Shown here: positions 1,367-26,737 of the stretch, piece after piece
How positions within the stretch are numbered: the stretch's first letter is position 1
How the letters are laid out: each line of letters opens with the position of its first letter
Virus record (IMG/VR): IMGVR_UViG_3300016665_000732
Span: 1 to 26,737 of that record
Source of the DNA: a virus
Taxonomy: Duplodnaviria; Caudoviricetes
Length of the DNA stretch: 26,737 bases
Reading direction: 5' to 3' (one strand)
The notes under the pieces: generated by a model
Told to the model about the DNA's origin: nothing
Database searches by the model: none
What the model saw: the letters and a program-made list of their open reading frames with translations, nothing else
Position numbers and translations under genes: made by a program

Positions 1367-1412
1367 ATAAGAGTCCTATAGTGAGATTAAAACCTTGCTA
1401 GGAGGACAAAAA

Positions 1413-3215
1413 ATGTCATTTAGAAATAAAATTGCCAGTCTAAAGGCTGAATTATTAGACCAAAGATTTAGAAGTGCTGTGATTAGAACAGCGTCAAAAA
1501 AAGAGAATTTAGGGCCTTTATTGGATAGTGTGTTGCATAAGATTGCGACAAACCAAAAGATTTCGTCTATTGAGAAGATTGCGTTATCCCCAAAGGAATT
1601 TGCGTCTTCAGTGCATAGAAACGGTCTCTTTATTGTATCTGGCTATACTACTAAGCAAAAAGATACTCCCTCTCAAGTTACTTTAATCCCAGAAGAACAA
1701 TGGTTTGAGAGTATTTTAGTCGGTAAAGCTGTCTATGAAAAAGGTATCTTAGCTGTTCTTCAAGGTGGTGGGAGTCCCGATGATGTTTTAAGTGAGGTAT
1801 CTTTAACCCCAAAGATGTTGTATGCTCAATTTACTACTAGTTTAGAGCATGCTTTGGGGCAAGAAGTGATGGCATTTCTTAAGCCCAATTTTAATGCCTT
1901 ATCTATGTTAGGAACACCCGCTCAAATTGGGGCAAGCTTTGTGGATGCAATTTTAAAGGCCTTTTTAAGTGAAAAGAGTAGCCGTGCTTTAAACACAGAG
2001 GCTGTTGCTAATATTAAGAATAGTCATTTAGTTCAGTCTATTAAGGCACAGAACGAAAAGAAAGTTATGGAAAAGTATGTAGCTAACTTGATGGGTAGCT
2101 TTATGCCTGCTCCCAAGTTATCGTCTATTCTTTATCAATTAAGTCCCGTTGAATATAAGTATAGAAGAATTGGTCGTTCTGAAAATAAGCGTGTTACTAC
2201 TGATGTAATGCAACTCTTTATTAACGAAGGCTTGAATTTAAGTAAGATGGAATCCTTATCGGCATCCGCATGGGGTGGTGGAGCTGTTGGGGAACAATCC
2301 TTTATGTTTAATCAATATGTTCCCTTTGCAACCGCTTTAAAGATTAACAATATTTTAAAGCAAGATGCTTTTATTTGGGGATGTCCCGCTAAAGATTACC
2401 CCATTATGATGTATTGGCCCGGTAAAGGCTACGCATTAACCCCAGCCGGCGTTCAAGTTGTTGAGGGTAATGAATTAAGTCATATGGTAGAAGTGTCTAA
2501 AGAAGTAGAAGTAAACCATCCTAAACATGACTTTTTACAAGTAGACTTAGGTAAAGGTCAGTCACAACAACTTTTCCAAGCTGTAGGTGGCTTGAAGAGA
2601 GCTTTACAACCTTCTGTCATTTTACATCACTTGAGGGAGTCTTTACATAAGTTTAAGATTATTCCATCTGTGACAAATGGTAACTATAGCGAAAAGCATC
2701 AATTACCTGCTATTGAACAAATTGTACAATTCTTGCCCAATAAGGAATATATGGCATATTTCCAAGGCAAGTTTGATATGCTTCAGTCTAACTTCCCAAA
2801 TATTATGGGTAGCTTAAGCTTTTCCGAGTGGCTTCAAGCTCAACAAAAGCCACATACCCCCGTCTCAAATCTCGAAGATGTGGATGTTGTACCTACAATG
2901 GTGCCTGTGGATACCAATACAGGTTTGACAGCAGAGCCCGTTCCGGGCCATGCTGACCACCTTAGAGTGGGTGCAAATTCTAACCAAAGTGGGTTTGCAA
3001 AAGCATGTTTTTACTATCTCATCAATTTCTATCCCCAATTAAAATATAGTATGGTAGAAAAGAAGTACTCAGCGGGTCGTGGTGGTTCTTTTGGGTTTAA
3101 TTTCTTTACAGCGGGAGAGTCCGAACATACTTTTAGTGGACAACCTTTGACCTTTGAACAAGTAAATAACGATAGAATTAAAGACGATATGTTGCCAATT
3201 AGCAGAACCCGTTAA
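1413..3215 (+). CDS. Hypothetical protein (~600 aa), possibly an internal virion protein
   Basis: Long ORF. GGAGG at 1401-1405 supports ATG 1413 over TTG 1395. The N-terminus has clustered K/R-x-A motifs. Confidence 0.8.
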   Translation: MSFRNKIASLKAELLDQRFRSAVIRTASKKENLGPLLDSVLHKIATNQKISSIEKIALSPKEFASSVHRNGLFIVSGYTTKQKDTPSQVTLIPEEQWFESILVGKAVYEKGILAVLQGGGSPDDVLSEVSLTPKMLYAQFTTSLEHALGQEVMAFLKPNFNALSMLGTPAQIGASFVDAILKAFLSEKSSRALNTEAVANIKNSHLVQSIKAQNEKKVMEKYVANLMGSFMPAPKLSSILYQLSPVEYKYRRIGRSENKRVTTDVMQLFINEGLNLSKMESLSASAWGGGAVGEQSFMFNQYVPFATALKINNILKQDAFIWGCPAKDYPIMMYWPGKGYALTPAGVQVVEGNELSHMVEVSKEVEVNHPKHDFLQVDLGKGQSQQLFQAVGGLKRALQPSVILHHLRESLHKFKIIPSVTNGNYSEKHQLPAIEQIVQFLPNKEYMAYFQGKFDMLQSNFPNIMGSLSFSEWLQAQQKPHTPVSNLEDVDVVPTMVPVDTNTGLTAEPVPGHADHLRVGANSNQSGFAKACFYYLINFYPQLKYSMVEKKYSAGRGGSFGFNFFTAGESEHTFSGQPLTFEQVNNDRIKDDMLPISRTR

Positions 3216-4561: not shown

Positions 4562-5455
4562 ATGATTTCGTTTAAGAGAAACCAAGTTTTAGGACGAGGG
4601 GACTTAGACATATTTTTAACCAACTCAACAGGTAATGTAGCAAATGCGGCGTCTATTACCTATGCGTTATATTATGTAGACCCCGGGCCACCCGAAACAG
4701 ATGTCTTAATTGGCAATTCTTTGAGAGCTCCCGAAAATCCCGCAGTAGGTGAATACTATGCGAGTGTGCGTATACCACAGACAGCGGCATACGGGACATA
4801 TCGTATTCGATGGACATTAAAGCAATTGGTAAACAGCCAACCTCAAGTGGTGGTGCAAGAGTTTTCAGTGGTACCAGAGAATGCGATGCTGAATTTAAGG
4901 GTAAATAAATCTGAGCAAGAGATGATTAGAAGTTTAAGGATTTTGTTAAGAGATCAGAACCCAGACAAGTTTTATCATTTTAGACCCCCAGAACATGAAG
5001 CGAACATAGGTCAATACAACCGAGTGTTTGGACAAGTGTGGGAAGACGAAGAGCTGTTAGAATATTTAAACCGAGCAATAGACTGGTGGAACATGATGCC
5101 CCCAGAGACGGAAAACTATAGGGATGTAAATACCTTAGTGACCCAGAAGCCGGCATGGAGAATGCCCGTATTGCAAGGGGCGATAGTAATGGCGGCGATG
5201 GCCTTACAAGCGAATTGGATTGTAGACGAGTTTGACTATTCAATAGGCGGTATCTCTTTAAACTTAGATAAGAGCAGTCGTTATGATGGTTTGAAGTCAA
5301 GTGCAGAGGGTTTGTGGAATCAAGCAGTGGACATGAAGGCAAGAACAACGAAATTTATACGAGGGCTTCAGCAACCTAAGTATGGTATCGGTATTAGAAG
5401 TGCATTCGGTCCCCACGTGGGAACGGGTGTTTTGTCGCCTCGTAATTTCCTATAA
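4562..5455 (+). CDS. Putative neck / head-tail adaptor protein with N-terminal Ig-like (BppU-like) domain
   Basis: Beta-rich N-half (GEYYASVRIP...GTYRIRW). The C-half has WEDEELLEYLNRAIDWWN and DEFDYSIGGISLNLDKSSRY, an arrangement typical of large-phage adaptor proteins. Assigned by eye. Confidence 0.5.
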   Translation: MISFKRNQVLGRGDLDIFLTNSTGNVANAASITYALYYVDPGPPETDVLIGNSLRAPENPAVGEYYASVRIPQTAAYGTYRIRWTLKQLVNSQPQVVVQEFSVVPENAMLNLRVNKSEQEMIRSLRILLRDQNPDKFYHFRPPEHEANIGQYNRVFGQVWEDEELLEYLNRAIDWWNMMPPETENYRDVNTLVTQKPAWRMPVLQGAIVMAAMALQANWIVDEFDYSIGGISLNLDKSSRYDGLKSSAEGLWNQAVDMKARTTKFIRGLQQPKYGIGIRSAFGPHVGTGVLSPRNFL

Positions 5456-6781: not shown

Positions 6782-7543
6782 TTAACTGCTAGAGAGGTCA
6801 CCAAACAGATACCAAGTATCAGTAGCTGTTTTAATGAGAGTTACCGCACCATAAGTGTTTGCTATATATCTATTAGAGCTAACGGAGTTAAGAGTAACAC
6901 CAACGGTTGGAGAGATATTAACGGAGCCGGCACCAATGCGGGTGATGATAATTTGAGCCCCAGTGGCTATAGCAATAGACGAATTTAAAGGGATAGTTAC
7001 TGTAGTGGCAGTTGCCTTATTCATGGTAATCATTTTGCCTTCGTCTGATACAGCTAGTGTGTAATTGTCTGTTTGAGCATTGAGAGTTATTCTAGTAGCG
7101 GTTTGAACATAAGCGGTGTTTGCTAAACTAGTAGAATTGTCTAAAGCTGTTTGGGTTGCTGTAGCAAAATCCACTTGACCTACAGTCCCGCTAAAGACTT
7201 CGCTACTATTAGTCGCATCTGGAATAAAGGTTAGCTTTTGAGTAGACCTATCGAAGCCAAAGAAGCCTACTTTAGCTGAAGTGCCATCATGCCATCTAAA
7301 TTCTATACCCCTATCCTTATTATCATTACTAGACGGGGCTGTATCTCCCCCTAAAGTTAAGATAACATCGTCTATTGTCTGAGTGGTGCTGTTAATAGTG
7401 GTAGTTGTGCCATTAACGGTTAAGTTGCCGGCAATAACAGCATCTCCTGTACTACCTACTATGCTAAATTTAGTGTTTTTGTTACTGTCTATTACATATA
7501 AATTATTTGAATATGAATTTTTACTGAAGCTGACCTTAGCCAT
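6782..7543 (-). CDS. Tail fibre-like protein
   Basis: Contains fibre motifs GNLTVNGTTTTINST, DNKDRGIEFRW...GFFG, DNSTSLANTAYV and a C-terminal YTL...TIP...G.V.L...YG.VTLIK...DTWYLFGDL domain. AAGGAG SD. Confidence 0.75.
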   Translation of the reverse strand: MAKVSFSKNSYSNNLYVIDSNKNTKFSIVGSTGDAVIAGNLTVNGTTTTINSTTQTIDDVILTLGGDTAPSSNDNKDRGIEFRWHDGTSAKVGFFGFDRSTQKLTFIPDATNSSEVFSGTVGQVDFATATQTALDNSTSLANTAYVQTATRITLNAQTDNYTLAVSDEGKMITMNKATATTVTIPLNSSIAIATGAQIIITRIGAGSVNISPTVGVTLNSVSSNRYIANTYGAVTLIKTATDTWYLFGDLSSS

Positions 7544-7550
7544 TTTATCT

Positions 7551-7572
7551 CCTTAGTACATATATACTAAGG
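7551..7572 (-). promoter_or_regulatory. Inverted repeat occluding the SD of the 6782..7543 gene
   Basis: CCTTAGTA-catata-TACTAAGG perfect 8 bp stem. On the minus strand the 3' arm contains TAAGG of the SD. Confidence 0.55.
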
Positions 7573-7589
7573 GCAGAGGCATAAAGGTA

Positions 7590-8099
7590 CTAGGGTTCTA
7601 GCTGAAAGAGATAAATTTTACTAGCAATGGGTAAGATGCCACCACCACTAGGTGTGACAGAAACTGTTTTTATATAGAAAGAAGTATTTGCTTCTAAAAT
7701 AGCATCTGCTGAGTTATGGTATTGATTTAGACCCCCGCCATTAGGTGTGGGATATGAGGCATATAGGAATCCGAAACCCCCTTGACAACCTAATTGTAAA
7801 TTAGTGGTATTATCAAAAATCCCATAAAGATAGCTTTGATTTTGAATAGGTTGATAACCAGATAACCATACCTTTTGTCTTAATGTTGCTCTAACTAAAG
7901 TTTTTTTTGTCACTGTAATGATAGAAGTATCTAGACTATTTATTGAGTAGTTAGTGTTTTGTTCTAAACCAAAAGAGATATAATTAGAATCTAAACTTGC
8001 ATTAGTGAAAGTAGCTTTAAGGTCTGCACCAACAGTATCGGATTCGTCAGGGAATAGTAAAACACTAGGCATTCTGAGGATAGTTGAAGGTATGTACAT
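7590..8099 (-). CDS. Beta-rich putative fibre-tip / receptor-binding accessory protein
   Basis: 169 aa, S/T/G/Y-rich, sits in the fibre cluster, N-terminus MYIPST. Confidence 0.55.
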   Translation of the reverse strand: MYIPSTILRMPSVLLFPDESDTVGADLKATFTNASLDSNYISFGLEQNTNYSINSLDTSIITVTKKTLVRATLRQKVWLSGYQPIQNQSYLYGIFDNTTNLQLGCQGGFGFLYASYPTPNGGGLNQYHNSADAILEANTSFYIKTVSVTPSGGGILPIASKIYLFQLEP

Positions 8100-8573
8100 T
8101 TATCGATTCTCCGATATAGGTAGCATAAAAAGATGACTATTAAGGTCTCTTGTTGTATATTGTGGTCTTAGTATAGAGTTTATAGCTTCTGAACTATTAA
8201 TACCATATTTAGGTGTACCTAAAGCTACGATATTATTCCACCAAACTAGAACATAGGAAACCTCTGACATACTACCTATGTAAGCATTTTTATAAAATTG
8301 GCTTCCGGAATAATCTACCGGAATATTATCTTCACCAATAGTATTGTATTGAACATAATATTGATAATCTCCTGAAAATGCTCCAACATTGAAATGCCAA
8401 TTAGAAAAGTATAAACCTTTAAGTCTAGTGTTGTCATAACTAGCAGTAGTTTTTCTACAAAATTCAGCATCTTGAGTATATAAGAAATCCCACAAATAAG
8501 TGCCAAAGCCTGCTTCTGAAGCTACCGAATCAGCCTTTACATATTTAATAGGTGTGCTAGGAATATAAGTCAT
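8100..8573 (-). CDS. Beta-rich putative fibre accessory protein
   Basis: Within track ORF 8100..8588. Probable start MTYIPST at 8573 (GGAG upstream). Aromatic-rich. Confidence 0.55.
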   Translation of the reverse strand: MTYIPSTPIKYVKADSVASEAGFGTYLWDFLYTQDAEFCRKTTASYDNTRLKGLYFSNWHFNVGAFSGDYQYYVQYNTIGEDNIPVDYSGSQFYKNAYIGSMSEVSYVLVWWNNIVALGTPKYGINSSEAINSILRPQYTTRDLNSHLFMLPISENR

Positions 8574-8575
8574 TT

Positions 8576-9022
8576 TTAAATTCTCCAAATTAGCATAGTG
8601 CCATTATCAGTGTTATAGGTAACTGTGCCAAGAACATCATTTGCTATGATTTGGATAGTCGATGTAGTACCGTCTGCTACGGTTAAATCATATTGAAACC
8701 CATCTTGACTTATGCCGTAAGTATATGCAGTAATATACCCCCAACCTTTAGGTGCAATAGCATTTACTCCGTCTATTACGAGGTTGTAATGGAGTTTATG
8801 CCAAAAATCTCCCTTAACCCCACCTAGGTACACCTCTATAAAATAGTCACCGGGTTGTAGAACCACACTATTGCTAGATATTGTAGCATAATTTGTGAAA
8901 GTGGTAGTCCCGTTTATATATATGGGGGTATAAATATGACCAACTTCAGCAGTTGGTGCGGGATAGCTAAACATATATTGCCCAACTATCGGTGTAACAA
9001 GGGTTTTTGCTAGATAGCTCAT
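8576..9022 (-). CDS. Beta-sandwich (C1q/TNF-like?) putative fibre-tip protein
   Basis: VVLQPGDYFIEV...TIQI...GTMLIWRI strand pattern, located in the fibre cluster. Confidence 0.5.
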   Translation of the reverse strand: MSYLAKTLVTPIVGQYMFSYPAPTAEVGHIYTPIYINGTTTFTNYATISSNSVVLQPGDYFIEVYLGGVKGDFWHKLHYNLVIDGVNAIAPKGWGYITAYTYGISQDGFQYDLTVADGTTSTIQIIANDVLGTVTYNTDNGTMLIWRI

Positions 9023-9040
9023 CTCTAAAAGTCCTTTTTG

Positions 9041-9487
9041 TTAACAGATGTACCAAGCCCCATCGGCTTCATTTGCAACAAGTGTTAGTACAGTACCTGT
9101 AATCGCTAAGACAAAAGAAGTAGTGTCACTAAAGTCTATAAAGACACCTGTATCTGCATTATTAGTACGGACGGTAACAAAAGCTGTGCCTAATCTTTTA
9201 ATATGGACTTTATATGTGTTCTTCCCCGATATTGGCGGTAGATATACATTAAACGCAGTAGAACTGTTTTTAACAAGAACAAAAGTTTCGGCTTCTGTGA
9301 GGCTTAAGGTTGTATTATCAGTAGTAACATCCGCATGATAGGTTAAAGAACCACCGCCCCCTCCACTTATAGTAACAGGCTTCCATTGAGAATGTGAACT
9401 ATCCCAAGCAAGGACTTGTCCATTTGTTGGTGGGGTTGTAGTTGTATCAACATCCTTAAGTGTATTTATTAAACGAAAATGGGACAT
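9041..9487 (-). CDS. Short tail-fibre-like protein
   Basis: INTLKDVD...NGQVLAWD...QWKP shaft motif, GGGGG hinge, then a VYLPP...VHIKR...WYI domain. Confidence 0.7.
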   Translation of the reverse strand: MSHFRLINTLKDVDTTTTPPTNGQVLAWDSSHSQWKPVTISGGGGGSLTYHADVTTDNTTLSLTEAETFVLVKNSSTAFNVYLPPISGKNTYKVHIKRLGTAFVTVRTNNADTGVFIDFSDTTSFVLAITGTVLTLVANEADGAWYIC

Positions 9488-9578: not shown

Positions 9579-10202
9579 TTAATGAGCATGCTTGGCTTGT
9601 TTAACCATGAAGTCATGGATTGCTTGAATGACGGAGGCTTCATCACTCATATCAGCATGGATAACTTGAGATGTTTCAACAAGAATTTCATCATCCTCAT
9701 CATTGGTGGTGATTTGGATGTCTGCTTGCATGCCATCTTTACCTTTTGCTTTAACTTCTAAAGCAAGGTGTAAACCTTTGCTTTCGTTCCAACATTGGAA
9801 AAGAGAACCATCACCTTCCCATTCACCCCAACCTTCAAGACCTTTATGGTTGGTCTTCAAATGCTTTTCAACAGCACTCATGATATTCTTGAGATTAACT
9901 GGGGAAGCAATACGAGCTTGTAAAGAAGCAATACGGGCTTCCAAGAAAGCAATTCTATCGAGAGTAGATGCTGTTCTAGATTGACCTTTTAGATGTTCAG
10001 CAGTGCTTAAAGTTCCTTCAAGATGATGAAGTTGGTCTGTAATATCTTTAGTTACTTTTTTAGCAACTGCATCGGATGAATATTGTTCTAATTCGTAAGC
10101 ATTAAGTTTTGCTTCTTTTAAAGAACTAATCGCATCTTTTAAATTTGAGATAACACCTTGAAGTAAGGTGCTTTGGGCTTCTCGAAAACCAGAAATAGCC
10201 AT
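9579..10202 (-). CDS. Hypothetical protein, coiled-coil N-half, possible internal virion protein
   Basis: 207 aa with AGGAG SD and a central RTAS/RIAF/RIAS/RIAS cluster. Confidence 0.75.
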   Translation of the reverse strand: MAISGFREAQSTLLQGVISNLKDAISSLKEAKLNAYELEQYSSDAVAKKVTKDITDQLHHLEGTLSTAEHLKGQSRTASTLDRIAFLEARIASLQARIASPVNLKNIMSAVEKHLKTNHKGLEGWGEWEGDGSLFQCWNESKGLHLALEVKAKGKDGMQADIQITTNDEDDEILVETSQVIHADMSDEASVIQAIHDFMVKQAKHAH

Positions 10203-10212
10203 TTTGTTTCTC

Positions 10213-11058
10213 CTATTTTAATCGTTTAATGCCGTCAGCGATGAGAATTGCTACCGCCTTTGCAAATCTATGCATGGCTGTAGCATTTGTCGCTTCGACT
10301 TGACCGAGGGTTAAGTTTAGGTTTGATTGGGAATATCCATATCCATCAGAGTTTTTAAAACTTACTTGAGGGATAGAGATAAGGTTAGGGTTTTCCACAT
10401 ACGGATTAGGTTTATCATTATAAGAATGATAAACGGTAATTGTAAAGGGGGTTGTGTCATAATTAGGTTCATCATCAGCGTCCATATCACGGAGGATGAT
10501 GACAGAATGGCCATCCTCTACTTTTTGAACTTTACTGAATAGACGGAAGGTGTTATTTTTAATCTCTGTAGCTACGAGAGCATAAAACTTTGTAAGAAAA
10601 GTTTTATCGATTTTCTTAGTAGGAGAGGGAGCATGTTCATGGGTTTTAATATGTTCTTCCGCATCATGATAAATCCCTGCGGCTAAAACAGCTCCAATAG
10701 ACCCTAAATCTTTAAGTTCGTCATTAGACATAAAGTCTGGGGCATATGCTTGTTTAGAATAATTAATCTTAACACTTCTGCTCTTGACATCTAGCATAGT
10801 TACTTGTTCTATATGGAAAACAGAGACAGGTGGTTCAAGAAGGTGTTTCATTCTAGAGGTCATTTTAGGTTCATATAGATACCTAACATAAACTTCAATA
10901 GGTAAAGGACGGTATCCTTGGTCAAGAGCGGAAAAATTTAGCTTTATAACAGCCATACTTTGCCCAACACTCTCTACAGAGGGTGTGAAATTGTGAGAAC
11001 CAAAGTCTTTTATTTGGTCACATACGTATTCGAAAAATTCATCTAAGTTTAGTATCAT
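10213..11058 (-). CDS. Hypothetical protein with apparent two-domain internal duplication
   Basis: Track ORF 10213..11064. AGGAG spacing favours ATG 11058. Confidence 0.75.
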   Translation of the reverse strand: MILNLDEFFEYVCDQIKDFGSHNFTPSVESVGQSMAVIKLNFSALDQGYRPLPIEVYVRYLYEPKMTSRMKHLLEPPVSVFHIEQVTMLDVKSRSVKINYSKQAYAPDFMSNDELKDLGSIGAVLAAGIYHDAEEHIKTHEHAPSPTKKIDKTFLTKFYALVATEIKNNTFRLFSKVQKVEDGHSVIILRDMDADDEPNYDTTPFTITVYHSYNDKPNPYVENPNLISIPQVSFKNSDGYGYSQSNLNLTLGQVEATNATAMHRFAKAVAILIADGIKRLK

Positions 11059-11095
11059 GAACATCTCTCCTTAAATATAACATTAAACCCTTAAC

Positions 11096-11110
11096 TATAA
11101 ATGATTTATA
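11096..11110. promoter_or_regulatory. Palindromic, possibly bidirectional promoter element
   Basis: TATAAATGATTTATA reads ATA-N5-TTTAT on both strands and lies about 40 nt from each of two divergent starts. Confidence 0.5.
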
Positions 11111-11149
11111 ACTTCTTACTTGTATATATACACTTATCTGGAGAGATTT

Positions 11150-12523
11150 ATGACAGCTGGATGGCAAGCATCGAGGTCAGCGTGGCCTCAACCCCCACAA
11201 CATGTAACAGCCCAATCTCCTTTTCTTAAGGGTGTAATAGACTTAAGATGGGATGACCCCGCTCAGTTACTTGGTAATGAAGGGTGGCTCGTTAGAGGGA
11301 TTAACATTTATCGGTCTACTGGCTCTGATCGAGGCCCTTTTAGACGCTTAAACTCTGCCCCCATTGGAAGCACTCTCTATCGAGATAGCTCTCGTCTAAT
11401 CCCCGTACATAATGAACTCATACGGGAATGGGTCTTTAAGGGTAATAATGCTGAAGACCCTTATCATTTTAAGACTAACCTTCCTATTGCTCGAACCGGC
11501 ACTAATGGTGAACCGTCTAATTCAGGTAGAGATGTTATCGTTACGGTCGATGGCGTTGTCGTACCCGTCATGGCAGTGAATGGTGCCGCAAGGGATGTCT
11601 TTATTCATTTCAGAGCTCTTCCGAATGCCAAAACTTGGAGATATGATAACCCCTTATTAGACAACCTCACCGACACTTCTGTTGTGACAATTAGCTATAT
11701 GGGCTATATCCCGGAAGACCGCTTGGGTGGTGACCAATTACATAAGAAGAACTTCTATCGCTTAACCACAGTAGCTGAGGATTATATCACGGGTGAACTC
11801 TTTGAAACCCCAATAGACCATACTCGTTCTGTGTCTGATCAAGACATCGAACAAATAGACTATATTTGGAGAGAAGGGGCTAGAAGAAACCAATGGATTT
11901 TAGAACAAGGCGGGGAACGAGTTAAATTCTTTACTCGTAGAGTTAACGGCACTCCTTGTAATTGCACCGACTTTGACTTTACCACATTGCAGTATGGAAA
12001 ACAGCCTGACAGTAGATGTCTTGCTTGCTTCGGTACTGGCATACTTGGGGGTTATGACGGGCCTTACGACATGATTATTGCACCAGATGATGCTGAGAAG
12101 CGAGTATCACAGTCTAATCAAGGTAGAAGAAAAGAGCATAGCTATGAAGTATGGATTGGGCCTAGTCCAATTGTTTCACAGAGAGATTTCTTGGTGAAGC
12201 TAAATAATGATAGGTATTCTATCGGTGCGGTAAGAAGTCCTACCAACAGAGGGGTCGTTTTACAGCAACACTTTAATGTTGGTTATTTAGACTCTGGTGA
12301 TATAAGATATAAAGTGCCCGTGGAGGGAGTCCCTTCTAGTTGGAATGAAACTAAGTACTCTTATAGACCCGGCTTGTTTAGAGAAACCTATAGTGCTCGT
12401 TCTGATGCTCCTTGGTCAGATATTGCTGATAAGAATTTCCCAATCCAAAATGACCGTAAGGATTTAGCTTTAGAACAAAAGGGACGTACAGGCACATGGG
12501 AAAACCAAAACTCTGGAGGCTAA
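11150..12523 (+). CDS. Putative virion neck / head-closure protein with FN3-like N-terminus and Zn-binding Cys motif
   Basis: IDLRWDDP...GINIYRS...GPFRRLN...YRD (FN3-like), then GERVKFFTR...CNC...CLACFGTG.LGGY. Start moved to MTAGW at 11150 (GGAG). Confidence 0.55.
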   Translation: MTAGWQASRSAWPQPPQHVTAQSPFLKGVIDLRWDDPAQLLGNEGWLVRGINIYRSTGSDRGPFRRLNSAPIGSTLYRDSSRLIPVHNELIREWVFKGNNAEDPYHFKTNLPIARTGTNGEPSNSGRDVIVTVDGVVVPVMAVNGAARDVFIHFRALPNAKTWRYDNPLLDNLTDTSVVTISYMGYIPEDRLGGDQLHKKNFYRLTTVAEDYITGELFETPIDHTRSVSDQDIEQIDYIWREGARRNQWILEQGGERVKFFTRRVNGTPCNCTDFDFTTLQYGKQPDSRCLACFGTGILGGYDGPYDMIIAPDDAEKRVSQSNQGRRKEHSYEVWIGPSPIVSQRDFLVKLNNDRYSIGAVRSPTNRGVVLQQHFNVGYLDSGDIRYKVPVEGVPSSWNETKYSYRPGLFRETYSARSDAPWSDIADKNFPIQNDRKDLALEQKGRTGTWENQNSGG

Positions 12524-12524
12524 G

Positions 12525-13076
12525 ATGATAAATAGTGTAAAAGTAAACCAAAATGGTCAATATGTCTTCGAGGCATTAACCTATAACTCAGCAGATATTC
12601 TCACAGCTTATCCCGCTATTGCTAGTCGGATGACCCCAGCGTTATATGCTGAAATCATGGGTATCTTTGGGGATAGCATTATTGCTCGTCTAAAGAAAGA
12701 AATGACAAGGCTAATGGGTATTGGGGTTATACCTAAGTCTAAATCCTTATATGAGTCTTTTGGGTATCGCCTAGATACCAAGCTAGGCAATCTTGTCTTT
12801 TATTCAACATGGGATAAGGCTAACATCTATGTGGCTGGGCGTGATAGCTATAAAATGTCATGGCTAACCAAGCAAAAGGGCGTGAACCGTAAAATTCCTA
12901 TGAAGGATAAAGAGGGTAAGTTAGTGTTTAGAACTGTCCCTCTTACTACCAATCAAGCTTGGGTGCATCCCGGCATTCAACGATTTTCTTTTTTTGCCGT
13001 AGCAATTGAGGAAGGTAGATGGGATGCTGTTTCCAAGGTTACTAATTTACTAATTAAAAAGGGCTTATACCTATGA
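12525..13076 (+). CDS. Putative neck / tail-completion protein
   Basis: Basic protein with LVFRTV...WVHPG motif seen in myophage neck-region proteins. Adjacent to the putative head-closure gene. Confidence 0.45.
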   Translation: MINSVKVNQNGQYVFEALTYNSADILTAYPAIASRMTPALYAEIMGIFGDSIIARLKKEMTRLMGIGVIPKSKSLYESFGYRLDTKLGNLVFYSTWDKANIYVAGRDSYKMSWLTKQKGVNRKIPMKDKEGKLVFRTVPLTTNQAWVHPGIQRFSFFAVAIEEGRWDAVSKVTNLLIKKGLYL

Positions 13077-13684
13077 TAATGCTGTTAAGATGTATAGACG
13101 CTAGGGGTATCCAAATCCCTTCAATTAGACGTAACCTGTCTTATGGTGATGTCTTTGAAGCAGGTAAGGAACTCATAGAAAAGAATAGAGAACTACAATA
13201 CTTTATCCGAGTAGGTAGCCTAGAAGTAAAAGAAAAAACCTCTAGCTTCCCCTCTAGAGTCAATAACTTCCCCACAAACCCCGTCTACCAAAGACCCCTA
13301 GCAGAACAAGCTCAAGCTCAAGCTCGGAACGAGCAAGAGCAACAGCGGGTTCTTCGTCCTGTGAACCCGGTAAATTCGTTGTACCCTCCGGCACCAAAAG
13401 AGCCCGTACAGCCGGCAATAGACATGAATGCTTTAGCGGAAATGATAGCAAGTAAGATTAACTTGCAAGTGGTATCTAATCCTAATATGGTAATGTCTAA
13501 TCAGACACAAGGGGTGCCCCAGTACAACACATCTAAAGCAACAGATGAGCTTGTGTTTATACCATCAACAATAGTGGATACGGAGCAAAAGGTAAGTCGT
13601 TCAATGTCTAATGAGAAAGCGACAGGGGACGATGTGTCGGATGCTTTGAAAGCCCTAAAGAAACTTAGAAAAGGAGGAGGCTAA
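13073..13684 (+). CDS. Hypothetical protein, Q/P/N-rich linker and C-terminal amphipathic basic helix
   Basis: ATGA overlap with the upstream gene. Its last codons supply the AGGAGG SD of the actin gene. Confidence 0.75.
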   Translation: MIMLLRCIDARGIQIPSIRRNLSYGDVFEAGKELIEKNRELQYFIRVGSLEVKEKTSSFPSRVNNFPTNPVYQRPLAEQAQAQARNEQEQQRVLRPVNPVNSLYPPAPKEPVQPAIDMNALAEMIASKINLQVVSNPNMVMSNQTQGVPQYNTSKATDELVFIPSTIVDTEQKVSRSMSNEKATGDDVSDALKALKKLRKGGG

Positions 13685-13686
13685 AA

Positions 13687-14703
13687 ATGGCAAAAGCTCC
13701 TAAGGTATTAGGTGTAGGATTAGACATTGGGACAATGAACTTAATGTCAGCTAAAAGACAAGGGTCTGAAGTGGTTACTCGTAGAATGAGAGACCTCTTT
13801 ATTGACTTACCCGCTTCAGCAAAAAAGATGTTAAAGTTGGGTTCAGTGCCTTATATCCAGAACGATGAGATTTTATTAGTTTTGGGAGATGAAGCTTTAG
13901 AGGTAGCTAATATGTTTGGTAAAGAGGGTCGCCGTCCATTAAAGGCGGGGCTTGTATCACCAGATGAAATTGACTCCTTAAAGGTGTTGGGCTTCATGAT
14001 TAAAGATGTGCTAGGCGAGGCAAGAGAGCCCAATGAACATTGTTACTTCTCTGTGCCAGCCGCACCCGTGGATGTCCCAATGGATGTTATTTACCACAAG
14101 GGTGTGTTTACTAAGATTGTAAAGGAATGTGGGTTTACTCCACATGCGTCTAATGAAGCTATGGCCATCGTATTTGCTGAGACAGCAAAAGAGGGCTTCA
14201 GCGGGATTGGGATTTCCTTTGGTAGTGGTATGACTAACATTGCTTTGTCTATTAACACAATTGAAGGTTTAAGCTTCTCAGTAGCAAGAGGTGGTGACTG
14301 GATTGACAACGGAGCCGCTAAGTCTGTTGGTTCAACCGCCGCTCGTATTTGTGCCATTAAAGAAAAAGGCATTCAGCTCTCCTCTCCCAATGGTAGAGAT
14401 GAAGAAGCGATTGCTTTTTACTACAAGGCACTTATTGAGTATGCATTGGAAAACTTGGCTCGTCAGTTCATTATGAAGAGCAATCACCTTAACTTGAATA
14501 GACCTATCCCAATCGTTGTGGGTGGTGGGACTTCTTTGGCGGGTGGCTTCATGGACTTCTTCAGAGAAGTTTTTGAGTCTAAGCGAAAGACCTTCCCAAT
14601 CCAAATTAGTGAAATTAGACATGCTTCTGACCCATTAGGCTCTGTGGCAAAGGGTCTATTAATTTTGGCAAGTCAAGAATACGAGGATGACGATGACGAA
14701 TGA
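13687..14703 (+). CDS. Actin-like ATPase (MreB/MamK/FtsA superfamily)
   Basis: All actin-fold motifs in order: phosphate-1 GLDIGTMN, RRPLKAG, FSVPA, connect-1 NEAMAI, phosphate-2 SFGSGMTN, GGDWID, adenosine VVGGGTSL, connect-2 DPLGSVAKG. Confidence 0.88.
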   Translation: MAKAPKVLGVGLDIGTMNLMSAKRQGSEVVTRRMRDLFIDLPASAKKMLKLGSVPYIQNDEILLVLGDEALEVANMFGKEGRRPLKAGLVSPDEIDSLKVLGFMIKDVLGEAREPNEHCYFSVPAAPVDVPMDVIYHKGVFTKIVKECGFTPHASNEAMAIVFAETAKEGFSGIGISFGSGMTNIALSINTIEGLSFSVARGGDWIDNGAAKSVGSTAARICAIKEKGIQLSSPNGRDEEAIAFYYKALIEYALENLARQFIMKSNHLNLNRPIPIVVGGGTSLAGGFMDFFREVFESKRKTFPIQISEIRHASDPLGSVAKGLLILASQEYEDDDDE

Positions 14704-15004
14704 CCCTTATTTAGATAAGTTTTTGGAAACTCTAAAAGAGGTTTTGCTTGAAAGGGAAGCAAAAGAACAATCTGGCCAATGGAAAGAGCCGGACGGTTTA
14801 CCTACTTTAGAGGACTTTTTATCTAATGCTAAGGACATGCCTTTTCAAGACATCTTAGAAATTGAAGACACCCCAACTATTAAGTCTGTTAAGCTAATTG
14901 ACCCTAACGGTCAAGGCTTTGAATTTGTGGGCAAATTTACATATGTATTTAAAGAGGATTTTAATGAGGGTACAAGCTTAATCTTAAAAGCCGTTAAAGA
15001 ATAG
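14687..15004 (+). CDS. Small acidic hypothetical protein
   Basis: Overlaps the end of the actin gene. GAGGA SD. The start could be 14693. Confidence 0.65.
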   Translation: MTMTNDPYLDKFLETLKEVLLEREAKEQSGQWKEPDGLPTLEDFLSNAKDMPFQDILEIEDTPTIKSVKLIDPNGQGFEFVGKFTYVFKEDFNEGTSLILKAVKE

Positions 15005-15139
15005 ATATCCTAGCTTACACACTAGAAGTGTGCTAGCAATGATGAGCAAGGTTTTGGTGACAAAGAGGTCGTGCTTAACATCTTGCTTAAGAGTTTCGAT
15101 CATGGTTTTAATCAGTTCTAGGTTATCGGTATTTCTCAT
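14984..15139 (-). CDS. Small coiled-coil plus C-terminal TM protein (~51 aa)
   Basis: Within track ORF 14984..15220. Probable start MRNTDN at 15139 (AAGGA upstream). Hydrophobic C-terminus. Confidence 0.5.
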   Translation of the reverse strand: MRNTDNLELIKTMIETLKQDVKHDLFVTKTLLIIASTLLVCKLGYLFFNGF

Positions 15140-15146
15140 AGGGAGT

Positions 15147-15569
15147 TTATTCCTTAGAAGCTTTGCTTTCGGCACGAAGTTGGTTGAGGGTAGCTTCCTC
15201 TTCTTCGGAGATAAGTTCATAGTCTAGATGCACTTTATCTGGGTTAGAGCATTCGGACAACAAGCCATTGATATATTGTTCTCTTAGCTTATTGAGTTCA
15301 TCGAGAGCGTTCTCCATGATGCGAGCTTGGGTGTTGATTTTTTCAGCTAATTCCACATATTCGGGTAAGTGTTGGTTCCAGCGATAGGTGCTAACATAAA
15401 AGCTATCGGAGGTGCAAATAGAACGATTATAGCCAATATCTTGCCATCTCAAGCGACTTTCGTTATATCTGAACCATTCGAACTTTTTATCACGACCACG
15501 GGTTTGAGGTTCAAGTGCTTTATAAGCCGCTTCTTCTCGGCGGCTAATCTTTCGTAGGCTTTTTGCCAT
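15147..15569 (-). CDS. Paralog family member 5, unknown function
   Basis: AGGA SD. Shares MAK..ISR.E, P...A...R...L and ISEEEE motifs with its neighbours. Confidence 0.8.
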   Translation of the reverse strand: MAKSLRKISRREEAAYKALEPQTRGRDKKFEWFRYNESRLRWQDIGYNRSICTSDSFYVSTYRWNQHLPEYVELAEKINTQARIMENALDELNKLREQYINGLLSECSNPDKVHLDYELISEEEEATLNQLRAESKASKE

Positions 15570-19286: not shown

Positions 19287-19674
<388 letters not shown>

Positions 19675-19682
<8 letters not shown>

Positions 19683-21028: not shown

Positions 21029-21409
21029 TTATTGGAGGGGGGTTGAAGTGCCATAGGTTAACAACACAGACATAGGCATACAGTCCTCAAAAACCTCTTG
21101 AAACTCCTCGTCAAGCTCCTCTTGTGTTGGCATACCTTTAAGGGAGGGGTCAAGCATAAGCCTAACTTTCCAAATACTAGCATAAGGGAAAACACAGTGA
21201 TGACTTTGACCGTCAAAGCTAAGATCGACCTCGATCTTATCTTTATGGACGACATAGTCTGCATGAGTTCTGATGGAAACTTTAGCATTATCCTTAGTCA
21301 TTAAATGACTAGGATATTCAACCCCCTCAATAGAGAGGTTGAGGCTTAATTGCACTTTACCCATAGAGAGCAAAGTTAAGAGAGTTCTATGTTTTGTTTT
21401 GAGAAACAT
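21029..21409 (-). CDS. SspB-like ClpXP protease adaptor, paralog 2
   Basis: GVEYPSHL...IEVDLSFDGQSHHCVFPYASIW matches the SspB core pattern. Clear paralog of 21466..21849. Confidence 0.65.
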   Translation of the reverse strand: MFLKTKHRTLLTLLSMGKVQLSLNLSIEGVEYPSHLMTKDNAKVSIRTHADYVVHKDKIEVDLSFDGQSHHCVFPYASIWKVRLMLDPSLKGMPTQEELDEEFQEVFEDCMPMSVLLTYGTSTPLQ

Positions 21410-21465
21410 AACGTCCTTAAAAGAAAAAGGTTGAAAAAACAGACTAGACTTGAGAAAACAGACAC

Positions 21466-21849
21466 CTATTGACTAGGGGTATCATCATCTCTCATAGATA
21501 ATGGTAGACAGTCCTCAAAACCCTCGTAAAACTCTTCGTCAAGCTCCTCTTGGCTTGGCATACAGTCTACATTGGGGTCGTGGATAATCCTCAAACTCCA
21601 AATTGAGTTAAGAGGAATAACACAAGTAAAGGGTTGACCATTGAAGCTAAGCACTGCCACGATTTTATCCTTATGGATAACTAGATCACCGTCAAACTCA
21701 GTTGATAAGTGAAGATAAGAGCTATCACGACCACTTGTCATAACATGACTTGGGAGGACTAAGCCGTCAACAGCTAGGTTGACACCTACTCGGATTTTAC
21801 CTAAAGATAGGTAAGTCATTAAAGTTCTATGTTTGTTAATGATTAACAT
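21466..21849 (-). CDS. SspB-like ClpXP protease adaptor, paralog 1
   Basis: GLVLPSHV...LHLSTEF..DLVI...IVAVLSFNGQPFTCVIPLNSIWSL is the stringent starvation protein B fold signature. Start moved to MLIINKH at 21849 (AAGGA). Confidence 0.75.
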   Translation of the reverse strand: MLIINKHRTLMTYLSLGKIRVGVNLAVDGLVLPSHVMTSGRDSSYLHLSTEFDGDLVIHKDKIVAVLSFNGQPFTCVIPLNSIWSLRIIHDPNVDCMPSQEELDEEFYEGFEDCLPLSMRDDDTPSQ

Positions 21850-21979
21850 ACAATCCTTTAAGTTAAGGGAAAAACACATCGACTACATTTAGTTAAGGGT
21901 TGAGGTTCTGAGAAATTAAAATGACTACGACCCCCCCCCAAAAAAAATTTTTATGAACGAACAGGGGTAGGGTCACCTT

Positions 21980-22021
21980 TATGAAATCTAGTCTTTAAGT
22001 ATGAAATCTAGTCTTTAAGTA
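21980..22021. repeat. 20 bp tandem duplication spanning the ligase stop codon
   Basis: TATGAAATCTAGTCTTTAAG x2. Confidence 0.9.
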
Positions 22022-23876
22022 AGTCTAAAAATTCATTCTCCGTAAGCACCTTAACGCCTAGAGAGTTTGCCTTGTCTAATTTAGACCCGGCTTTCTCGCC
22101 AGCGACAAGGTAGCTTAAGTTTTTACTGACAGATGAGGCAATATTACCCCCATTATTACTTACAAGAGCTTCCGCATCATTTCTCTTCATGGTAAGGGTT
22201 CCTGTGAATAAGAAGCTCAAGCCTTTAAACTTACCTTCTCGTTCTACCCCATTGTCAATAGAGATAAAGGTAAGTAATTCGTCAATAAGAGTCTCGTTAG
22301 CTTTTAGGCCGTCTACGATTGCTTTAGCCATAAGCTCCCCAAAGCCCTCTAAGATTTCAATTTGAGCATAGGTTAATGCACGAATAGACTCTAAGGTTTT
22401 AAACTTAGAACTTAAGACATCGGAAGCCTTACGACCTAGTGCTTCAATCCCAAGAGATTGTAAGAATTTGTCTAATGACACTCTTTTAGCCTTGCCAATA
22501 CTAGAAAGCCAACCGTCAATTCTAGTGTCTCCCATATTGTCTAGCTTAGATAAGCCGGCTCTATCTAGTCTAAATAAATCTACAGGGCTTAAAACGAGCT
22601 TAGTTTCCACTAGCTTCTCAACCCATGATTGCCCAATTCCTTCAATTTCCATCCTATCGATAAAATGGCTAATCCTCTGGGTCAAAGCAGATAAACAAGT
22701 GTCTTTACCCGTGCAATAAAGAAAATCTCCTTCTAAGCTCGTAGAAGCCCCGCATTGAGGACAATGACTAGGCAATGAAATTGCAGTGTCGCCGTCTTTA
22801 ATGACTCGTTCGAGGTGGGGGATAACGCCACCTCTACGGCAGGCAAGGACTTCTGCATTAAGGGTGAGGCCTTTAGACTTAAGCATAGAAGCATTATGTA
22901 AAGTGATGCGGCTAACAACAGCCCCACTAAGAGGGACAGGGTCAACCAAGCCTACGGGAGTAAGAATGCCATTACGGCTAACTTGCCATTCGACACCTCT
23001 AAGGACGGTGATTTTTTCATCACCTTGGAATTTATAAGCAAGAGCACCTTTGGGGTGATGGCTTGTATAGCCGGCTTTCTCATATTCGGAAACATTATTG
23101 ACTCTATAGACGACTCCATCAAGTTCATAGTCTAATGAGAGTCTTTCTTGGGCAACTTTATCATAGCCCTTTTGTAAGTCATCTTTAAGGACTTGATAAG
23201 GAGGGACAGTAAACCCAACCTGTTGCAAGACGCTAAAGCGTTGTGCAAGGGTGGGGTGGTTAGTGCCGATAAGGTCATATGCAAAGAATTTAATACCGAG
23301 GTTAGCGGTATAGGAGGCACCGCCATCTTTTTGTTTAAGGGAGCCTGCTACAGCATTTCTTGGGTTAGAGAAGGCTTGTTTATGAAGTTCATAGGAGGAG
23401 AGGGGCATATAGAGTTCGCCTCTAACTTCGAAGTCAAGCAAGTCTTTAACTTTTTTAGGGATGGAGTCTAATTTAACGACATTAGCGGAGATGTCTTCAC
23501 CAACAGAGCCATCACCTCTAGTGGAGGCAAGTTGAAGGCAACCAGATTTATAGATAAGGCTACAGGCCATGCCATCGATTTTGGGAGAAACGATAAAGTC
23601 TGATTTAAACTTGGAAGCCCATTTAATAAGAGAGGCTTCATCATAGCATTTATCTAGGCTTAACATGGGTTTAGAATGAGTAACCTTAGTACCTAGTTCA
23701 TCGAATTGGACACCGAGAAAAGAGAGGATAGGATGTTCGGAGTCAAAAGAGCGAAGCTCTTCGACAAGCTGGTCATATTCTGAGTCTGGGATTTCTGGGT
23801 TTTGGAGGTTCCAATAGAGGTGATTATGTTTAGCGATAAGAGAAGCGAGTTCTTCGATAGCTATAATTTTCTTCAT
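22008..23876 (-). CDS. ligA: NAD+-dependent DNA ligase
   Basis: Domain Ia (Y...NPEIPDSEYD), PMLSL, KIDG adenylation motif, TRGDG, EVRGE, NPRNA, DGVV, AYKF, OB fold (TLHN), CxxC...C...C Zn finger, HhH repeats and BRCT (GEKAGSKLDKA). Confidence 0.97.
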   Translation of the reverse strand: MKKIIAIEELASLIAKHNHLYWNLQNPEIPDSEYDQLVEELRSFDSEHPILSFLGVQFDELGTKVTHSKPMLSLDKCYDEASLIKWASKFKSDFIVSPKIDGMACSLIYKSGCLQLASTRGDGSVGEDISANVVKLDSIPKKVKDLLDFEVRGELYMPLSSYELHKQAFSNPRNAVAGSLKQKDGGASYTANLGIKFFAYDLIGTNHPTLAQRFSVLQQVGFTVPPYQVLKDDLQKGYDKVAQERLSLDYELDGVVYRVNNVSEYEKAGYTSHHPKGALAYKFQGDEKITVLRGVEWQVSRNGILTPVGLVDPVPLSGAVVSRITLHNASMLKSKGLTLNAEVLACRRGGVIPHLERVIKDGDTAISLPSHCPQCGASTSLEGDFLYCTGKDTCLSALTQRISHFIDRMEIEGIGQSWVEKLVETKLVLSPVDLFRLDRAGLSKLDNMGDTRIDGWLSSIGKAKRVSLDKFLQSLGIEALGRKASDVLSSKFKTLESIRALTYAQIEILEGFGELMAKAIVDGLKANETLIDELLTFISIDNGVEREGKFKGLSFLFTGTLTMKRNDAEALVSNNGGNIASSVSKNLSYLVAGEKAGSKLDKANSLGVKVLTENEFLDLLKD

Positions 23877-25741: not shown

Positions 25742-26236
25742 ATGGCTATTACAACCAAAGCCTCTTTAAGTTTTTACACAAATGGTTTATCCACAGACTA
25801 CAATTCCACCTCTCAAATTAGACCAGCAAGTAACGGTGATCTTGGCTGTGATACTACTCTTAAGGTTTTAAGAGTAGGAGATGGTGCGACAAGAGGGGGT
25901 ATTCCAGTACCAACCGCCTTAAACTTTTTTAGTCAAGTCACCGCAGGTGGTAATGTCACATTAGGTAATCATCATGTTTATGTTGCTAATGGTGGGTCTA
26001 CTGTAACTTTACCTGCTTCTGATGCCTCTTCTGTTTATCATGGTGTTCAAAATAACTTTTATGGTCGCCGTTATCTTATTGTACATTCTAGTGGTGCTGA
26101 TGTAACTGTAACTGGCCCCGGTGGTTTTTCTGCTATCCTTACAGAAGAACCTAATGGTTTTAAGTCTATTGAAGTTATGTCCACAGGTAGTTCTTGGGTT
26201 ATCATCAATTCTTCCTTGAACCCTATTGTTCTTTAA
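25742..26236 (+). CDS. Short fibre/spike protein with Mtd-N-like anchor motif
   Basis: GDLGCDTTLKVLRVGDGATRGG followed by a VTLPAS...GRRYLI...W.II domain. AGGAG SD. Confidence 0.7.
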   Translation: MAITTKASLSFYTNGLSTDYNSTSQIRPASNGDLGCDTTLKVLRVGDGATRGGIPVPTALNFFSQVTAGGNVTLGNHHVYVANGGSTVTLPASDASSVYHGVQNNFYGRRYLIVHSSGADVTVTGPGGFSAILTEEPNGFKSIEVMSTGSSWVIINSSLNPIVL

Positions 26237-26264
26237 TCCCATATAACAGAGAAAGATACCTAAA

Positions 26265-26737
26265 ATGGCTTTAGTGAGAAACATTAATGGCATTTTATGC
26301 GGGTCTACCGGTGATGTGAATGCATATCGAGGGAGATTCAATGAAATTGTCATTAACACCCAAACTAAGCAGTTTAGGCTCATGGATGGAAAGGCTCTCG
26401 GGGGACAGTCTTTCGCTGTTTCAGCGGTAGTAGATAATTTGTCCGATATCGGAGATGTGCTTTTATCAAGCCTCTCTGCAGGACAAGCCTTAGTGTGGTC
26501 TGGGACTCATTGGGTTAACTCTACCGTTACAGCCACCATCGCAGATGGGTCTATTACTGCCGCAAAACTAGCAAGCAACTCCGTTATCGAAGCTAAAATC
26601 TTAGATGGGGCAGTGACCAATGCCAAATTGGCAGGGTCTATTGCTTTATCTAAGCTTTCTTCTGCGGGGGTAAATGGGCAAGTAATTCGTCTAAACGGCG
26701 GTGTTGCCACTTATTCGGATTTTTCCTTTGCTAATCT
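26265..26737 (+). CDS. Tail fibre protein, N-terminal part (runs off window, absent from ORF track)
   Basis: Hand translation gives MALVRNINGILCGSTGD...NEIVINTQTKQFRLMDGKALGG...LSDIGDV...GQALVWSGTHWVN...IADGSITAAKLA...ILDGAVTNAKLA, with no stop before the window end. Confidence 0.85.
   Translation, partial: MALVRNINGILCGSTGDVNAYRGRFNEIVINTQTKQFRLMDGKALGGQSFAVSAVVDNLSDIGDVLLSSLSAGQALVWSGTHWVNSTVTATIADGSITAAKLASNSVIEAKILDGAVTNAKLAGSIALSKLSSAGVNGQVIRLNGGVATYSDFSFAN

Follow-up and report, generated by a model that had tools for sequence, protein, structure and literature searches.

What an actin might be doing among the neck genes of a phage is the question raised by the virus record IMGVR_UViG_3300016665_000732, a stretch of 26,737 nucleotides that we analyzed as a whole (the window) and that constitutes the entire record, a 26.7 kb virus fragment of an incomplete genome. 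The gene in question encodes an intact actin of the volactin family, outside MreB, and together with the gene upstream of it, gp13073 (the partner), it forms a strongly supported linked pair within the neck/tail-completion block. The reading we favor is that the actin forms filaments late in infection, that the C-terminal tail of the partner docks on them, and that the N-domain of the partner holds heads or head-neck intermediates; for this chain as a whole we would give a probability of roughly 45%. The pair has the following features:

13687..14703, plus strand: volactin-family actin-like ATPase of 338 aa (Pfam PF25216, AlphaFold2 model, fold matches, motif counts).
Motif residues of the actin, from a 90-row alignment: D13-G15-T16; E157; S177-F-G179-S-G181; G280-G-T-S283.
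13073..13684, plus strand: partner gp13073, a predicted adaptor of 203 aa (alignments, model, synteny).
Parts of the partner: N-domain, residues 1-55; a variable low-confidence linker; FIPS, residues 162-165; basic helix, residues 188-201.
13673..13680, plus strand: GGAGG ribosome-binding site of the actin gene, within the last codons of the partner.

The sole Pfam family matched by the actin is PF25216 (Volactin), with an E-value of 4.7e-74 and 250.2 bits against a cut-off of 35, in an alignment spanning profile positions 3-321 of 321. The MreB, MamK, FtsA and BeeR family profiles gave no Pfam match at E<=0.01, and there was neither a PHROG match nor an NCBIfam match (E<=0.1), MamK and BeeR included. 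The AlphaFold2 model, based on the 90-row alignment, reaches a predicted local distance difference test (pLDDT) value of 96.4 and was compared with 48,161 solved chains using VIA-align, as were all structures compared with the PDB. BeeR was the top match (Z 27.5, root-mean-square deviation 3.5, 304 aligned residues, 17% identity), followed by MreB (Z 26.1) and the archaeal actin 4bql (Z 24.9). Identities in the structural alignments are 11-19% to MreB, MamK, FtsA and BeeR and 10-13% to ParM and Alp7A, and the nearest solved sequences by profile are MamK (E 3e-15) and BeeR (E 1e-9). The intact actin-fold gene that an earlier note had described from the letters of this DNA is thereby confirmed, and the recent capture from within host MreB that the same note had considered was rejected.

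Residues D13, G15, T16, E157, S177, G179, G181, G280 and G281 are conserved in 87-90 of the 90 rows, and the DxGT, connect-1 Glu, SxGxG and GGT motifs of the actin fold are all in place. Serine 177, which takes the place of the phosphate-2 aspartate, is present in 88 of them, and three haloarchaeal volactins have SFGAG at this position; SFGSG is therefore a mark of the family and not an oddity. Two peculiarities pointed out in the earlier note thus exist without being special: the SFGSG motif is the family norm, and the acidic EDDDDE end of the actin has counterparts across the family, where short acidic ends are frequent. Among 50,697 GenBank phage records only two matched the actin, both of them uncultured (485 and 595 kb). 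We found no description of phage volactins in the literature, subscription journals being outside our coverage, and they are absent from the main-text passages of PMC7162821, PMC10914622, PMC12363816, PMC12619734 and PMC11748809 that were available, the supplements of which might list them. Bacillus phage G seems to have an actin-fold gene from another family, as its gp506 (G3MAP7) matched the model as an actin/Hsp70 fold (E 4e-10, 14% identity).

In the model of the partner residues 1-55 are folded, with pLDDT values of 96-98, and according to the alignments the tail consists of a conserved F-I-P-S followed by the basic helix. The segment DVSDALKALKKLRK, residues 187-200, is predicted to be helical and has a hydrophobic moment of 0.52, a value that 831 of 10000 shuffled versions of the segment reach. 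Since such a moment is common among shuffles, the significance of the helix lies in its conservation and not in its amphipathicity. The partner had been described as disordered with an amphipathic basic helix; the helix stands, but the first 55 residues fold and the amphipathicity is unremarkable. Structures similar to the N-domain occur among many small uncharacterised phage proteins (best template modelling score 0.79 with a 51-aa target, E 5.6e-3, none below 0.001), and the best hit of an ESM Atlas search (0.83) was within chance. A proposed N-domain paralogue, gp396, was rejected with an E-value of 0.11.

For the gene neighborhood, loci were picked by alignment to the neck gene in order to avoid selecting on the actin, and the best 80 of 158 neck-gene relatives were kept, corresponding to 65 clusters at 95%. 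The actin lies within 10 kb of the neck gene in 67 of the 80 loci (53 of 65 clusters), and a gp13073 homologue is found upstream of it in all 67, directly adjoining it in 43. The gene order in relatives is neck gene, gp12525, partner, actin, tail terminator and sheath, the genes downstream of the actin matching the tail terminator and sheath of Tunturi_5. Synteny across related phages, which the earlier note had proposed as a check, is in other words conserved. A locus reached through a distant actin rather than through the neck gene (L208) likewise carries a neck gene, a tailed partner and an actin, and its partner tail was detected with an E-value of 0.0019 among 4158 open reading frames (ORFs). 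The 13 loci lacking the actin comprise three that are cut short, four that are rearranged, and six (5 clusters) that have the tail terminator but no actin.

These last six loci show what happens to the partner when the actin is gone. The tail was detected in 65 of the 67 actin loci with a 13-sequence profile, one further locus (L096) being added by a 63-sequence profile at 21.6 bits, and in none of the six terminator-bearing loci without actin. Four of the six have kept the N-domain without the tail (-0.1 to -1.9 bits), and the other two, which are near-identical, lack a partner altogether. The four N-only partners require two or more changes when placed on a neck tree of 20 rows, and the hypothesis that they arose once was rejected (approximately unbiased test, p 0.00046); a 67-row quick tree agrees that they are not one clade, and recombination could mimic such multiple origins. 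Many of the scored loci had also gone into the tail profiles, which makes the positives partly circular, and the weight is therefore on the negatives and on L208, as well as on the haloarchaeal test described below, which is also non-circular. Near-complete relatives give the same picture: the whole of G006 (536 kb, CheckV 100%) is free of volactin, and its partner homologue consists of the N-part alone, and G007 (CheckV 95%) has neither actin nor partner. In G008 the gp12525 homologue, partner, actin and terminator are found together approximately 90 kb from the neck gene. Two further genomes, G009 and G010, are less than half complete and give no information on this point. Because actin-less phages retain N-only homologues, we suggest that the protein with the N-domain served virion assembly in its own right, and that the tail hitches this role to the filament. 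The co-lost tail defines a 50-residue candidate volactin-binding element.

The actin also diverges together with the neck gene. Pairwise identities of neck gene and actin are correlated over 54 loci (Spearman 0.74, reached in 0 of 999 permutations). Five pairs of relatives gave the actin a ratio of nonsynonymous to synonymous substitution rates (dN/dS) of 0.02-0.04; for the partner, three of the pairs were not saturated, with values of 0.10-0.13. It is synteny, tail co-loss and co-divergence that support the linkage of actin and gp13073, and of the actin plus adaptor system of the earlier note the pairing of these two genes is upheld, but not the inclusion of the small acidic protein gp14687, which is no conserved part of it. 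A FastTree phylogeny separates 40 neck-phage actins from three haloarchaeal ones; it contains 163 rows, 33 of the original 196 having been dropped as intein-bearing or partial, and no MreB outgroup, its rows are mostly of unknown origin, and it cannot name a donor.

The module belongs to a clade of uncultured tailed phages of 250-540 kb. A close complete relative (G001, 312 kb with terminal repeats, actin identity 79%) has matches to major head, portal, terminase, head protease, baseplate, sheath and DNA polymerase; no RNA polymerase, integrase, shell or ParA/ParB-named PHROG match was obtained at E<=1e-8 with 194 of its 197 ORFs of at least 170 aa. Tubulin (PF00091) was matched in none of five near-complete relatives, a search that covered the relatives only and ran without a PhuZ control. 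Mutual exclusion of actin and tubulin was rejected, as the actin-less G006 and G007 also lack a tubulin match. A second clade of huge phages (L025 and L128-L207, records up to 595 kb) carries a distinct volactin with 32% identity to that of the window and, in 77 of 78 informative loci, its own upstream partner of 70-90 aa ending in W-x-I-P-x-F. Homology of its 75-aa partner to the tail described here was not established (HHalign probability 0.8%).

The window places the pair behind the following genes and in front of one more:

12525..13076, plus strand: gp12525, conserved neck-block gene directly upstream of the partner, recurring between neck gene and partner.
11120..12523, plus strand: gp11120, neck/minor tail protein, context gene, with the start likely at 11153.
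4562..5455, plus strand: gp4562, head-tail connector, context gene.
14687..15004, plus strand: gp14687, small acidic ORF of 105 aa, lineage-specific passenger, with the likely start at 14693.

An ATGA overlap joins gp12525 and gp13073, and the stop of gp13073 is followed after 2 nt by the actin start, with the GGAGG ahead of it. Head-tail connector gp319 of Tunturi_5 matches gp4562 with 27% identity over 292 aa (E 9e-29), in addition to a weak phrog_17327 match, and gp11120 is 38% identical to Tunturi_5 gp322 (“minor tail protein”) and 24% identical to phage G gp175. For gp12525 there was no Pfam, PHROG or NCBIfam match, and Tunturi_5 gp323 matched with an E-value of 0.025 only. The tight coupling downstream of neck genes seen in the earlier note is hence real, and its virion morphogenesis operon is right as to the neck context; in the window, however, the structural block ends after the actin, the terminator and sheath being found downstream only in relatives. 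The 3' end of the actin is overlapped by gp14687, which more likely starts at ATG 14693, the two full-length homologues nearest to it being 103 aa long each. This ORF had been taken for a third component, a claim that we abandon, as tblastn gave no match at E<=1 in 208 loci and there are only five homologues, 57-100% identical.

Several side observations were made around the locus. Three 20-nt look-alikes (85% and 75%) at 14556-14575 in the 3' part of the actin and at 14706-14725 and 14802-14821 in gp14687 lie in different frames, and reflect either chance or a gene-insertion scar behind the actin. Tail-fibre-like genes are found at 6782-9487 on the minus strand, where this group breaks up the neck block, and at 25742-26735 on the plus strand. 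On the minus strand there are also a 131-aa, extremely acidic ORF (19287-19682), two small ORFs that look alike, of which one matches SspB weakly at E 0.004 (21029-21879), and an NAD-dependent DNA ligase (22008-23876). An FmdB-family zinc-ribbon gene is conserved between tail terminator and sheath in most neck loci (L018:12577-13011). Sixteen ORFs of G001 (L112-L127) have an N-terminal leader of the LE-x-RIA-x-LE type in common, with recurring RTAS/KTAS motifs; the observation also concerns window positions 9579-10202 and 1395-3215, and several genes of this kind occur as insertions between partner and actin. The leader or motif is possibly a packaging or processing tag.

The haloarchaeal members of the family, 37-38% identical to the window actin, offer a test of the tail outside phages. 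In PMC10869688 the volactin of Haloferax volcanii is described as forming dynamic, tip-anchored filaments that resemble ParM and affect cell shape, with the tips anchored to the membrane; volA appears essential. The CdpA-like HVO_2016 adjoins volactin, hinting at a common function (passages of PMC12126565). A gene for a DUF7139 membrane protein is located upstream of volactin in three of three haloarchaeal loci examined, and the phage tail profile ranks these three DUF7139 proteins 1, 2 and 4 of 525 ORFs through their C-terminal part, the scores being reached by 0, 1 and 0 of 500 shuffles. The resemblance of the DUF7139 C-terminal part to the phage tail is suggestive only.

The family and fold of the actin, its nucleotide motifs, the order of the genes, the purifying selection seen in relatives, co-divergence and tail co-loss are observations, on which a mechanism can be proposed. 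The actin would form ATP-driven, dynamically unstable filaments, which the behavior of the H. volcanii volactin, the one member with dynamic filaments demonstrated in vivo, makes very probable. ParR engages ParM via its C-terminal helix, and the FIPS motif and helix of the partner would dock on the actin much as ParR or AlpA do on theirs, a step that we regard as likely and that the joint loss of tail and actin supports only indirectly. Gene position suggests that the pair would be expressed late; the promoter scan gave a result at chance level, and the RNA data (two runs with small shares, one short contig each) have no bearing on timing. One RNA-library contig covering 14163-14514, part of the actin, contains a back-joint and is likely an assembly or library chimera. 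Given filaments and tail binding, we lean slightly towards a cargo of proheads or heads, which the N-domain would hold for delivery to packaging or tail-joining sites, as in the PhuZ system. A wider version, in which several huge-phage lineages run an actin-based capsid-transport cytoskeleton as a counterpart of PhuZ, and in which a gpFI/YqbF-like capsid binder gained a volactin-docking tail related to an archaeal anchor, is a tentative proposal that we would not call probable.

A number of points weigh against the proposed chain. Polymerisation, binding, timing and cargo are all steps that we infer. The pair is dispensable: G006 and G007 lack the actin, and two cultured phages, Tunturi_5 and phage G, possess this neck block but neither volactin nor partner. 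One locus (L058) keeps the actin with a partner that has no helix and a tail score of 2.3 bits, and in 24 of the 67 actin loci 0.3-2.5 kb are inserted between partner and actin. The DUF7139 tail matches are individually insignificant (E 0.12-0.65), and at one locus of the second clade none of 12 neighbors had a structural-gene match. Finally, the top PDB match of the N-domain is an unrelated enzyme (Z 5.5), and those to YqbF (Z 4.6) and to the C-domain of lambda gpFI (Z 3.5), the capsid-binding part of that protein, stand among unrelated rows and are below the trust level of the tool, so capsid binding is only a lead.

It is conceivable, if unlikely, that the genes constitute a system of the ParMRC/AlpAC type that positions replicating phage DNA, in which the partner would couple the filaments with DNA or the packaging complex and not with capsids. 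AlpC and AlpA move the DNA of prophage CGP3 (PMC5539076), the dynamics of volactin resemble those of ParM as mentioned above, a basic patch ends the partner, and lambda gpFI, the weak fold neighbor of the N-domain, bridges the capsid and the terminase-DNA complex according to passages of PMC13595911. The genes are, however, placed among neck genes and not replication genes, and the partner has no recognised DNA-binding domain by Pfam, PHROG or NCBIfam. Furthermore, no centromere-like repeat array was found in 10900-15300, a site outside the 27 kb fragment being possible, and the 194 large G001 ORFs searched gave no integrase or ParA/ParB-named match.

We find it quite improbable that the actin-fold protein works without forming filaments, as an assembly ATPase or scaffold similar to PilM or EutJ that would act as a chaperone of neck or head-tail joining, the partner being its cofactor. 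The fixed position between neck genes and tail terminator would fit such a role, non-polymer actin-fold proteins reach Z 21-24 against the model, and the phosphate-2 aspartate is replaced. The identical serine is nevertheless present in haloarchaeal volactins, the type member of the family polymerises in vivo, the closest solved relatives by profile, MamK and BeeR, are filament formers, and related phages use the same neck block without an actin.

Action of the filaments on the host cell, through its shape, a division block or membrane tethering of the assembly site, with the neck location reflecting late timing only, is likewise doubtful. It would agree with the effect of volactin on cell shape and its membrane-anchored tips (PMC10869688, in the passages cited), with family members in records labelled Patescibacteria and Planctomycetota, and with the second clade, which has no detected structural neighbors. 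It is harder to reconcile with a partner that gave no DUF7139 match in the Pfam scan and lacks that membrane domain, and with the finding of no second tail-bearing protein that could serve as anchor in the window or G001.

The idea that the gene was captured from a host in recent times and is a neutral passenger is largely refuted and very improbable: the actin has been lost in several lineages and cellular homologues exist, but the dN/dS values and the co-divergence with the neck gene speak against it, as do the 1960 protein matches (62-94% identity among the 120 matches listed, the haloarchaeal members reaching just 37-38%), a GTDB genome scan that returned a single locus, a spurious match to another enzyme, and no true close relative, and the inteins that Pfam finds within the ATP site, at several positions around phosphate-2, in four family members (P0121, P0125, P0126 and P0145). 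Two neck-phage actins of approximately 700 aa (L052:12669-14798 and L061:14304-16412) are probably also intein-bearing.

We return to the favored reading, filaments that would position heads, and compare the pair with known systems. The cytoskeletons known from phages are either a tubulin (PhuZ) or a DNA-moving prophage actin (AlpC). The present system resembles the PhuZ spindle of nucleus-forming jumbo phages, which traffics empty capsids (passages of PMC7950403), in being a putative phage-encoded cytoskeleton of very large phages, and differs from it in using actin and not tubulin and in the lack of a tubulin, RNA polymerase or shell match in relatives. A volactin inside the neck genes of most members of a widespread huge-phage clade would be a tubulin-free, actin-based way to organise very large virions. 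With AlpC/AlpA/alpS of the Corynebacterium prophage CGP3 and with ParM/ParR/parC it shares a mobile-element actin next to a small adaptor gene, and it differs from both in the actin family, in that no DNA-binding domain or repeat site was found, and in its structural-gene context. MamK, which positions cargo via its adaptor MamJ, and BeeR are the closest solved relatives by profile and fold, at about 17% identity and with no NCBIfam MamK or BeeR match for the window protein. Functionally the pair is most like a type II actin-adaptor pair, a partition role not being established, and it is not PhuZ.

The nearest relative in sequence is volactin VolA (HVO_2015) of Haloferax volcanii, which shares PF25216 and the S-x-G-x-G phosphate-2 motif. 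The phage system is unlike VolA and HVO_2016 in being viral, 37-38% identical, placed among neck genes and dispensable, and the partner has a small soluble N-domain where HVO_2016 has the four-transmembrane DUF7139. In both systems the actin has a fixed upstream gene, the C-terminal part of which in Haloferax weakly resembles the phage tail; the C-terminal part of HVO_2016 thus becomes a candidate for the factor that anchors volactin tips in that organism. If this is true, one short motif would tether volactin tips to archaeal membranes and couple volactin filaments to phage heads.

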